DNA of 64,000 nt from a virus, in the UHGV virus genome UHGV-0036853. The stretch is one strand, 5' to 3'. Shown in pieces: positions 6,001-9,000 of the stretch; within the stretch, counting starts at the first letter, position 1; the number at the start of each line of letters is the position of its first letter. The position numbers are program-made.

Positions 6001-9000
6001 TCTTTGGTAAAGGTGGTCATTAGGTAGCTCTCTCAACAACAAGCAATTCGTCGTAGTCATAATCAGTTTCGGAACCATCCGTACCGAACAGAGTCACTTT
6101 GTCACCGTCCATCCAGAAAGATTTAACCGCACATTGTTGACCTTTAGATGTTATGACCACATCACCAGGTATTACGTCCTCAGCGCGAACTTCTATAGTT
6201 CTCATCATGCTGATCCCTCTTTCTCTCCCCGGATAATTCTGTTGCACACATCCACACACTCGTCGCAGATGAAAACGGCGTCCCCAGCAATTAACTTTTT
6301 GACGGCGTACTGGGATTTGTTGCAGAAGCTGCAACAAAGTGTTCGCCTGACTGATAAGGATGGAGCGCCAGATGTCAGCCGCTCCATATCGTTCTTGCGA
6401 CGCAATATCACACGGCTGAACTCAACCAGTTTCTCCGGGGATATCTCCTCCTCCGTAGCGAGCGTCTCTAGTCGTTCGAGTATGTTGAAGGCTTTTTCCT
6501 GGGTAATAGCAGAATGCGATGTGGTCATCTTCTTTCACCTTCAATGTTCGTGGTGCTGACAAGATTGTCCTTGCGAAGAAGAGCGGCTATGCGCTTGCTT
6601 CCATCCGAGATAACACCTTCGTAATACTCACGCTGCTCGTTGAGTTTTGATTTGGCTGCCTTCATCTCAACACGCAGCTTCTCAAGCGTTAGGGCCATCT
6701 CTACGTTCTCCTGCTCAAGACGTCCGATGTAATGTCGTCTTTTATCCAGTTCTTCCAGCAGTGCAATCACATCGGGATCACTATCATCAACTACTGTTAC
6801 GCGTGATTTTTCATAATGTTCGTCTGCAAAAGTACGTCCTATCTTAAAATATCCGTCATCACCCTCACCGGAGCAGGCATAAACGACATGTGCTCCAGAT
6901 ATGCGCTGTATTGACATTTCCTCGCCACAAACAGGGCATCTAGGCGCTGGTTTTGGTGAATAACGCTCACGTAACGCCAGGTAGTTAATCTCACTCACTG
7001 TCTATCTCCTTTACGTAGCTCGGCGGCAAAAGCTACTGCGTGATCATGATGTTCAAGTGTGTATGCACACTCCGCAAACATCTCCACGCCCTGCGCACGT
7101 ACTTCAGCCAGAAAAGCATCGGTGGCTGGAGTCTCCGTTAATTCGCTAACCCAATTATCTCCGTGTTCCTCGGCACACATCGCATCGAATGCTCGCTCAG
7201 ATTCTTTCAGGGCTGCATTCTCCGCCGCTAATGCGTCTCTCTGCGCCCGCAACTTCTCAATTTCGGCAGCCATGTAGTAACCAACCATAGCGAAAGTGGC
7301 GAAAGGGTAGTCAGAATCATCAGGAGATACGGAGGCCATTAGCAGACCATCGTGCATGTTCTGGCTTCCATCAGTGATGGATACCGCATAAGAATCGCTG
7401 GTTTCCCGTTTATACAATACGACGACCGGGTTCTTGATTTTCTCTCTCATTACGATGCCTCTAACTTGTCTAACTCTTTCAGCCCTTCACGTACCGCGTT
7501 CACAATACGTTCCAGATACTGGTATTTCGGGTTTGGTACCGTTGGCCAGTCGGCATACCACGGATCATCACCAAAGAGATTCAGCAGTTTGTTACCGACG
7601 CCGAAACAACAGCAGCTTTCTTTTACGTCATCGGCGTTTTCCGCCTCGTCCCACATTTCGCGAGCCTGTACCGCGTCGATTTCTTTCTCTCTTCGTAACT
7701 TTATGATTTCTGACTTCACGAAAAGCAGATTTGCATCGTTGTCATCGTCGACCGTGCTTAGCAGTTGAGGGTCGAAATTGTCGATTAGATAGTCGTTGCT
7801 AACTCGCTTAATGAACGTCTGCACATCATCACCGCCCATAGCAAACCAAGCCGCAGTCCACGCCTTTCCGTAGCAGGTGATGGTGATTCTTCCCTTACCA
7901 GGTTCGTAGTTTTCAATCATCACTCGAACCGGATCGAGGCGTTCCAGATCCGTCAGCACAAAGGAAAGAACATCTATTTTTTCGACCTTCATGCAGCCTC
8001 CCACGCGCTCCAGATCAGCGATTTGTGTTTTTCATAACGTTTGATGTGTACCGGTTTCAGAAGCGCAATACCTTCAGTGACTTTCGCCATTGCGCTTAAT
8101 AGCAACGGGTGTTCTATACCTATCCTCTCCATGTACTCGACAACATCAGCGTTGGCACCAATCTCTTTGCCGTGAAAGAGTACGTCCAGCATCAACTCTT
8201 TCTCTGCAAGGTAGATAGCTGAAAACTCAGGATCGCGACTCACGATAGAAGAGGTATTGTCGAGCAGGTCAGCCAGCTTGATCATGCGCGTCTGCATGTC
8301 GAGATTTTGCTCCAGCTCCCGGACATTGATGATGAAACGCTGTATTCGATTGCCGTCTTCTGGCCTTGCAATGTTGGTCAGAGCCTGAACCATTTCAGCT
8401 ACGCGCTCACCGAAGTGATCACGAACCATCTCTATGGTTACATGGGTGTCTTCGACCACATCATGCAGAAGCGCCGCGATTTGCATCTCCACGGTTCCGT
8501 CATGCAATGCAACAATCTCTCGGACAGCAACCGGGTGGTTGATGTAGTCTTCGCCGGTATATTTTCTTTTCTGACCAACGCCACCATGAGCGCCAGCGGC
8601 GAACATATGAGCTTCGGAAATACTAGACATTCTTAACTCCGTTGTTTTCTAGTTGTGGTTATTTTCACAAATAAGAAAAGGTAGAAAACAATTTATTTAA
8701 GGCCATAAGTTATGGCCTTTATTTATTCATGCAGAAGGATTTGTAGCGCCTAATTGCCGAATAAAATGGGTTGAGGTGCTTGCCAGTAAGCTCCACCGTC
8801 CCATGTGAACCCCATGCGAATAAGAGTGTTTATTGCGGCTTTGGTAGACTCCGATTCGACACTGGCTTTTCGAAACTCTTGAACCTCTTTCGCCAACTTG
8901 TATGTAATTGTGCAGGGGACGATTGCAGCCCAGCCTTTCTCATGACTGTTAATGACCATCTGGATGTGACCATCCAGAATAGGTTGATCAGGCATGTTAT

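Follow-up and report, generated by a model that had tools for sequence, protein, structure and literature searches.

A probable toxSAS-neutralising small alarmone hydrolase of the PaSpo type in an accessory cassette of an SSU5-like phage-plasmid of Escherichia coli

PaSpo is a subfamily of small alarmone hydrolases (SAHs) (Atkinson 2011; Jimmy 2020) that includes the SAH of Salmonella phage SSU5, an enzyme able to neutralise all five validated toxic small alarmone synthetases (toxSAS) in E. coli, namely CapRel, PhRel2, FaRel2, PhRel and FaRel (PMC7229694). Jimmy et al. 2020 proposed that incoming phages could bypass alarmone-mediated defence via alarmone hydrolases of their own (PMC7229694), and an anti-immunity role for such enzymes is an idea already published in 2020. 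Leaky expression of the SSU5 enzyme is enough for FaRel2 detoxification (10.1101/2024.07.05.602228), and it has served as a tool in the production of CapRel-SJ46 (PMC9712102) and PhRel2 (10.1101/2021.04.30.441581). Four of the five toxSAS make no alarmones and pyrophosphorylate tRNA at its 3' CCA end instead, and MESH1 and ATfaRel restore aminoacylation of the pyrophosphorylated tRNA in vitro (10.1101/2021.04.30.441581). ATfaRel, the antitoxin of Cellulomonas marina FaRel, belongs with the SAH of phage PVP-SE1 to another subfamily, PbcSpo; both are single-domain RSH hydrolases and cross-neutralise all tested toxSAS (PMC7229694), and ATfaRel removes the tRNA 3'-pyrophosphate in vitro (10.1101/2021.04.30.441581). 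MESH1, found in human and Drosophila, hydrolyses both ppGpp and pyrophosphorylated tRNA (10.1101/2021.04.30.441581). CapRel systems occur in Salmonella phage SJ46 and in prophages of E. coli, Enterobacter and Klebsiella, and the genera that bear CapRel are genera that carry SAH-bearing phage-plasmids. Our literature search returned neutralisation by PaSpo in vivo, no in-vitro PaSpo substrate assay (ppGpp hydrolysis included), and no phage SAH that overcame toxSAS defence in a real infection.

The window analysed here is a stretch of 64,000 nucleotides (64 kb) of the viral genome UHGV-0036853, for which the original prediction had proposed a RelA/SpoT-type HD hydrolase at 7989-8630. That interval turned out to be a single exact ORF of 213 aa, running from ATG to TGA and filling all positions with its stop codon included; what we add is the strand, which is minus. 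The gene and its start signal read as follows.

7989..8630, minus strand: SAH gene, PaSpo-type, 213 aa, with one HD_4 domain followed at the C terminus by extra helices specific to its clade (about residues 154-213).
8637..8640, minus strand: Shine-Dalgarno sequence GGAG, 6 nt 5' of the ATG at 8630-8628, from direct reading of the sequence.

The three motifs quoted in the original prediction are all found in the translation, with HPVAV at residues 32-36, LHDVVEDT at residues 55-62 and KLADLLDN at residues 118-125. Plus-strand ORFs inside the same interval (for example 8307-8636) gained no support and were set aside as shadow ORFs.

Compared with the SSU5 protein SSU5_099 (YP_006906731.1), also of 213 aa, the window protein is identical at 187 of 213 positions (88%) in a gap-free alignment, and most of the 26 substitutions fall in the C-terminal third, after residue 150. 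We assume that SSU5_099 is the PaSpo SAH described in the literature, as SSU5 carries no other SAH homologue, and this full-length identity, with its 26 differences, is the proxy by which we place the window protein in PaSpo. The two loci are alike in that each forms a two-gene cassette with a 4-nt overlap between the SAH gene and a downstream gene on an SSU5-group phage-plasmid; they differ in their flanking genes and in host, Salmonella for SSU5 versus E. coli here. The gene is therefore already known in kind, as a close orthologue of a studied enzyme on the same type of element, and constitutes no new enzyme or mechanism.

The assignment to RelA/SpoT-type hydrolases was borne out by family profiles, catalytic residues and predicted fold alike. 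Residues 8-134 match Pfam HD_4 (PF13328) at E = 1.3e-18 with 67.6 bits, against a curated cutoff of 27.2 bits; the NCBIfam profile TIGR00691 (spoT_relA) matches at 1.4e-24 over only its first ~123 of 687 positions, the N-terminal hydrolase part; and phrog_990, a "metal-dependent phosphohydrolase", matches at 6.6e-55. A sequence search of the PDB gave 22 matches, every one of them to a Rel/SpoT hydrolase domain, MESH1 or an SAH, among them a (p)ppApp hydrolase; the best were A. baumannii SpoT at 1.7e-13 and M. tuberculosis Rel at 5.3e-13. Across 30 aligned homologues spanning 42-88% identity, no variation is seen at R22, Y24, H32, P33, H56, E60, D61, T62, K118, D121 or N125 and hardly any at D57; H32, H56, D57, E60, D61, D121, N125, R22 and K23 are all present and either invariant or at least 90% conserved. 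In human MESH1, SpoT and Rel, the residues that align with these columns are the metal-binding H, HD and D, the catalytic ED, and the R/K and N that bind phosphate. The roles of the H...HD...ED...D...N residues are established for RSH hydrolases, and those in MESH1 reportedly go back to Sun et al. 2010.

An AlphaFold2 model built on the 30-homologue alignment is all-helical, with 12 helices, a mean pLDDT of 96.4 and a pTM of 0.92. The top 50 hits of a Foldseek search of the PDB, each at probability 1.00, consist entirely of RSH hydrolases, led by MESH1, by SAHs of P. aeruginosa, Leptospira and Corynebacterium, and by Rel/SpoT. In the model the last 80 residues form helices packed against the HD domain itself, and residues ~154-213 form three extra helices that are common to the phage-plasmid clade and absent from homologues of 165-190 aa. 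HD_4/HD profiles were the only ones matched in the 213-aa protein, and no synthetase, TGS or ACT domain was detected in it. By profile and model, then, the protein is a hydrolase-only RelA/SpoT homologue with a predicted intact active site and, since its single RSH hydrolase domain stands without any other, a small alarmone hydrolase. The SpoT and Rel hydrolase domains share its motifs and give its best PDB sequence matches; unlike these long RSH enzymes, the window protein carries neither synthetase nor TGS nor ACT/RRM domains and would therefore be free of ribosome- or ACP-linked regulation.

The 3 kb around the SAH gene match, over their full length and at 98-98.6% identity, non-mobilisable plasmids of ~109-111 kb from E. 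coli, E. albertii and E. fergusonii, and 57% of their length also aligns to Salmonella phage SSU5, with a nucleotide identity of 86%. Over the initial 25 kb of the window, identity to plasmids of this kind is ~98%. The closest complete plasmid (110.8 kb, 133 features) encodes a RepB replication initiator and ParB-like proteins together with terminase, portal, capsid and tail genes, and also DNA polymerase III alpha, a primase, a helicase, NrdAB, ThyA, DHFR and four tRNAs. From these matches and the gene content of the closest plasmid, the window is thus identified by sequence comparison as part of an SSU5-group phage-plasmid of E. coli, a well-described group (PMC7969092; 10.1101/2025.09.12.675607). 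The gene lies in the early/accessory region of this SSU5-like phage-plasmid, and the description of the hydrolase as borne "on the element" holds in the specific sense that the plasmid and SSU5 matches put it on a mobile phage-plasmid.

Immediately downstream of the SAH gene lies a second gene, and the two together coincide with an interval that sister phages lack.

7450..7992, minus strand: downstream gene of 180 aa, function not assigned; its near-identical counterpart in sister plasmids is annotated by PGAP as "phiTE_072 family protein"; phrog_3451.
7451..8655, minus strand: accessory cassette of 1.2 kb comprising the SAH gene and the phiTE_072-family gene, absent from sister phages Cyrano and PhiR41_1.

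At 7992-7989 the sequence ATGA overlaps the SAH stop codon with the ATG of the 180-aa gene, and the arrangement suggests that the two are probably translationally coupled. In pairwise blastn, homology to Cyrano and PhiR41_1 ends at 7450 and resumes at 8656-8659, whereas SSU5 matches 7468-8729 at 86.8% nucleotide identity with the same two genes between different flanks. This break in the sister phages, and the recurrence of the same pair in SSU5, mark 7451-8655 by comparative evidence as a discrete and dispensable two-gene accessory cassette. A composition scan gave no signal of recent acquisition within it, the GC content being 0.45-0.52, like that of the flanks. The pairing is not kept in distant relatives, where the SAH genes of Klebsiella-type elements and of another phage-plasmid lineage have unrelated neighbours. 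An obligatory partnership of the 180-aa gene with the SAH was considered and found to be unsupported, given those unrelated neighbours and the lack of any Pfam, NCBIfam, PADLOC or PDB match for the 180-aa protein.

The wider distribution of the gene is patchy. The surrounding 3 kb are matched by 200 Escherichia plasmids, but tblastn found the SAH protein in only 46. A 99%-identical protein cluster has 705 member sequences, and SAH homologues as a class are known from 248 phage records, many of them from strictly lytic jumbo phages. Decayed forms circulate as well, including a 139-aa truncation found on 139 contigs (P0011), an HD-to-HG variant (P0009), and two deletion chimeras (P0010 and P0012) in which the N terminus of an upstream gene is fused to the C-terminal part of the SAH with loss of the metal ligands. 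Since the gene is absent from sister phages, which infect E. coli K-12 without it (Cyrano and PhiR41_1), and since truncations and deletion chimeras are common, it is unneeded for basic propagation. The family of SAH-bearing phage-plasmids spans E. coli, Salmonella and Klebsiella and is clinically widespread.

We consider it probable that the gene encodes an active, stand-alone SAH of the PaSpo type that neutralises toxSAS products and sits in a dispensable cassette of an SSU5-like phage-plasmid. Mn2+ is the metal in characterised RSH hydrolases. By analogy with that family, a divalent metal would be held by H32, H56, D57 and D121, the E60-D61 pair would activate water, and the enzyme is predicted to remove the 3'-pyrophosphate from its substrates in an Mn-dependent manner. 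To judge from the in-vivo experiments on the orthologue, these substrates would be the products of toxSAS, (pp)pApp and 3'-pyrophosphorylated tRNA CCA ends; the fold makes (p)ppGpp a plausible further substrate, and a lowering of (p)ppGpp a possible secondary effect. The enzyme would act as a broad neutraliser in trans rather than as a cis antitoxin, and would shield the phage-plasmid from toxSAS abortive infection (e.g., by CapRel) during infection, induction or residence. The original prediction had suggested that the enzyme might degrade nucleotide signals used by host immunity, and this idea holds up with one refinement. An action against immunity agrees with the neutralisation of five of five toxSAS in E. 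coli by the 88%-identical SSU5 orthologue (PMC7229694), a set that includes both (pp)pApp producers and enzymes that pyrophosphorylate tRNA. Four of those five toxins, however, make no nucleotide signal at all, so modified tRNA is probably a relevant substrate alongside (pp)pApp.

A bolder version of this proposal, which we hold tentatively and at somewhat short of an even chance, treats the locus as a mobile counter-defence cassette in which the SAH, possibly with its 180-aa partner, would act on 3'-pyrophosphorylated tRNA and disarm CapRel-type toxSAS by RNA repair, with the patchiness and decay of the gene reflecting an arms race. None of the ten neighbouring window proteins scanned is Tad2-like or another recognisable anti-defence protein, and PADLOC recognised in the neighbourhood only the methyltransferase part of a DUF4942 protein. 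A DNA methyltransferase adjoins the SAH gene both in the window and in the distant relatives examined, and in one distant relative a Tad2-like anti-Thoeris gene lies at a distance of 2 kb from the SAH; these two observations fit an anti-defence neighbourhood as circumstantial evidence. The SAH gene is not scored by current anti-defence annotation and does not appear in the anti-defence gene list of a survey of SSU5-group phage-plasmids. If the counter-defence cassette reading were true, current anti-defence catalogues would be missing a SAH cassette. More broadly, a phage-plasmid family of E. coli, Salmonella and Klebsiella would be carrying a broad-spectrum toxSAS neutraliser, and the candidate natural roles of phage SAHs include counter-defence, stringent-response damping and lysogen protection.

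The main rival to toxSAS neutralisation is host reprogramming, where hydrolysis of (p)ppGpp would suppress the stringent response such that replication and late expression go on in starved or stressed cells, and neutralisation of toxSAS would merely follow from broad specificity. A damped stringent response, which had also been part of the original prediction, is plausible from the modelled fold, given that the closest relatives by structure and sequence (SpoT, Rel and MESH1) are genuine (p)ppGpp hydrolases. It also suits the setting of the gene in a long operon-like array that encodes the nucleotide-metabolism proteins NrdAB, ThyA and DHFR and a MazG/PRA-PH-like pyrophosphohydrolase, and the presence of homologues in so many strictly lytic jumbo phages. 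However, E. coli already has SpoT, our literature search found no measurement of ppGpp hydrolysis for any PaSpo member, and a dispensable gene with so patchy a distribution among Escherichia plasmids fits an arms race better than it fits a core aid to replication. We therefore regard host reprogramming as unlikely to be the principal role, fitting the patchy distribution less well, though the two roles are compatible and would not exclude one another.

Less probable again, and in our judgement improbable, is a role as a MESH1-like metabolic phosphatase acting on NADPH or another 3'/2'-phosphorylated nucleotide for the nucleotide and cofactor metabolism of the element. MESH1 gives the best structural match to the window model, with a TM-score of up to 0.82 on the target, and shares its H...HD...ED...D...N active-site residues; the human enzyme is reported to dephosphorylate NADPH, an activity reported for MESH1 only, and metabolic promiscuity has been described for an orphan SAH from bacteria (PMC9765508). 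Against such a role, MESH1 is a eukaryotic protein of only ~26-28% identity to the window protein and lacks the helical extension of ~35 C-terminal residues seen in the phage-plasmid clade, and the demonstrated in-vivo phenotype of the SSU5 orthologue is toxSAS neutralisation (PMC7229694).

Some bacteria use SAHs as type IV antitoxins (PMC7229694), and the tight coupling of the SAH gene to its 180-aa neighbour might recall a toxin-antitoxin pair such as that formed by ATfaRel of Cellulomonas marina. The gene of ATfaRel stands next to that of its toxin, but the window gene lacks a synthetase partner: the RSH synthetase motifs EhQhRT and DxxGxR are missing from all six frames of the 64-kb window, HDxxED occurs once in the same six-frame scan and lies inside the SAH gene, the genes neighbouring the SAH show no RSH similarity, and the annotation of the closest complete plasmid, with its 133 features, lists no RelA/SpoT synthetase. 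The 180-aa neighbour, with no Pfam, PADLOC or PDB match, is not kept beside distant SAH homologues, and loss of the pair as a whole does the sister phages no harm. With no synthetase on the element, the SAH is therefore not a cis antitoxin but, on sequence evidence, an orphan hydrolase, and the antitoxin of an element-borne toxSAS module was rejected as a candidate, the chance that it is correct being very slim. Slimmer still is the chance that the gene is a decaying and non-functional remnant, as the truncated (P0011), HD-to-HG (P0009) and chimeric (P0010, P0012) versions in related elements might suggest, when the window copy is untruncated and retains all its catalytic residues, a 99%-identical protein cluster has 705 member sequences and the model is confidently folded.

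A hairpin lies upstream of the SAH gene.

8699..8719, no strand assigned: near-palindromic GC-rich hairpin, within the 119 nt of intergenic sequence upstream of the gene.

No sigma-70-like promoter reached the scan threshold on the SAH coding strand, and both the sole promoter-like site near the gene and the hairpin terminator score on the plus strand, the hairpin at 8699-8719 scoring as a terminator on that strand only. It may be a candidate terminator of the upstream unit or a candidate regulatory site. A related copy lies at 3468-3488 of the window, and similar intergenic copies are found in SSU5 and in a sister plasmid.

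The small alarmone hydrolase (SAH) gene of this phage-plasmid is flanked by two genes that match different parts of a single profile, PHROG 3451 (287 positions):

9130-9834, minus strand: 234-aa protein upstream of the SAH gene, matching positions 13-107
7450-7992, minus strand: 180-aa protein downstream of the SAH gene, matching positions 105-282

Given that the match to the profile is divided between the two proteins, this arrangement suggests that the genes lying between them, SAH included, separate either the two halves of a single ancestral gene or two paralogues derived from it, and the position of these putative halves or paralogues on either side of SAH in turn points to mosaic recombination in the region.

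Decayed SAH alleles are found in related phage-plasmids, represented by the database relatives P0009-P0012. P0010 is a chimera to which the AAA_28 gene (window position 19212 downward) contributes its first 31 aa and SAH the part from approximately residue 57, a fusion that implies a deletion of ~10.7 kb, and in P0012 the N-terminus of the 234-aa protein is joined to SAH from approximately residue 75. A truncation leaves 139 aa in P0011, which occurs on 139 contigs, and in P0009 the HD motif is replaced by HG.

A DUF4942 protein is encoded near SAH in every phage-plasmid lineage examined, though its order relative to SAH varies, being upstream in the window and downstream in two other SAH-bearing sequences, L007 and L009. 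The latter, a 110.6-kb distant phage-plasmid from a Logan assembly, also carries a Tad2-like gene, an equivalent of which was looked for in the window, where ten proteins neighbouring SAH were scanned, and not found:

9896-11581, minus strand: DUF4942 protein with a C-terminal methyltransferase region, matching PADLOC mad2 (2.5e-15) and type II methyltransferase models
L009 2563-2877, plus strand: Tad2-like gene (PF11195, anti-Thoeris sponge family), 2 kb upstream of the L009 SAH

Further features of the window are as follows:

1-1839, divergent orientation: metG (methionyl-tRNA synthetase), incomplete at the window start, with apbC
2440-3381, plus strand: two successive ORFs of 194 and 118 aa in an otherwise minus-strand region
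19212-19688, minus strand: dihydrofolate reductase
21375-22244, minus strand: MazG/PRA-PH-like pyrophosphohydrolase
48923-49924, minus strand: four tRNA genes, Ser-TGA, Thr-TGT, Tyr-GTA and Asn-GTT

The ORF pair, which had no match in Pfam or PADLOC and is unannotated at the equivalent site of the closest plasmid, may be a variable insert; it is followed by a hairpin (3468-3488) related to one upstream of SAH (8699-8719). The first 25 kb of the window matched 5426 of 5426 E. coli genomes, with identity of only 80-90% in most records and the majority of sites chromosomal, which we take to mean, from matches known for the 25-kb query as a whole, that the chromosomal metG/apbC pair is present on the element in diverged form.

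The literature discusses tRNAs on mobile elements as a bypass of tRNA-targeting defences, and FaRel2, one of the five toxic alarmone synthetases neutralised by SSU5 PaSpo in E. coli, targets tRNA-Thr and tRNA-Gly. PGAP annotates the closest plasmid's counterpart of the dihydrofolate reductase as trimethoprim-resistant DfrA51, and dfrA50/51 in phage-plasmids is the topic of a published paper. The pyrophosphohydrolase is the element's second nucleotide-pyrophosphatase-type gene.
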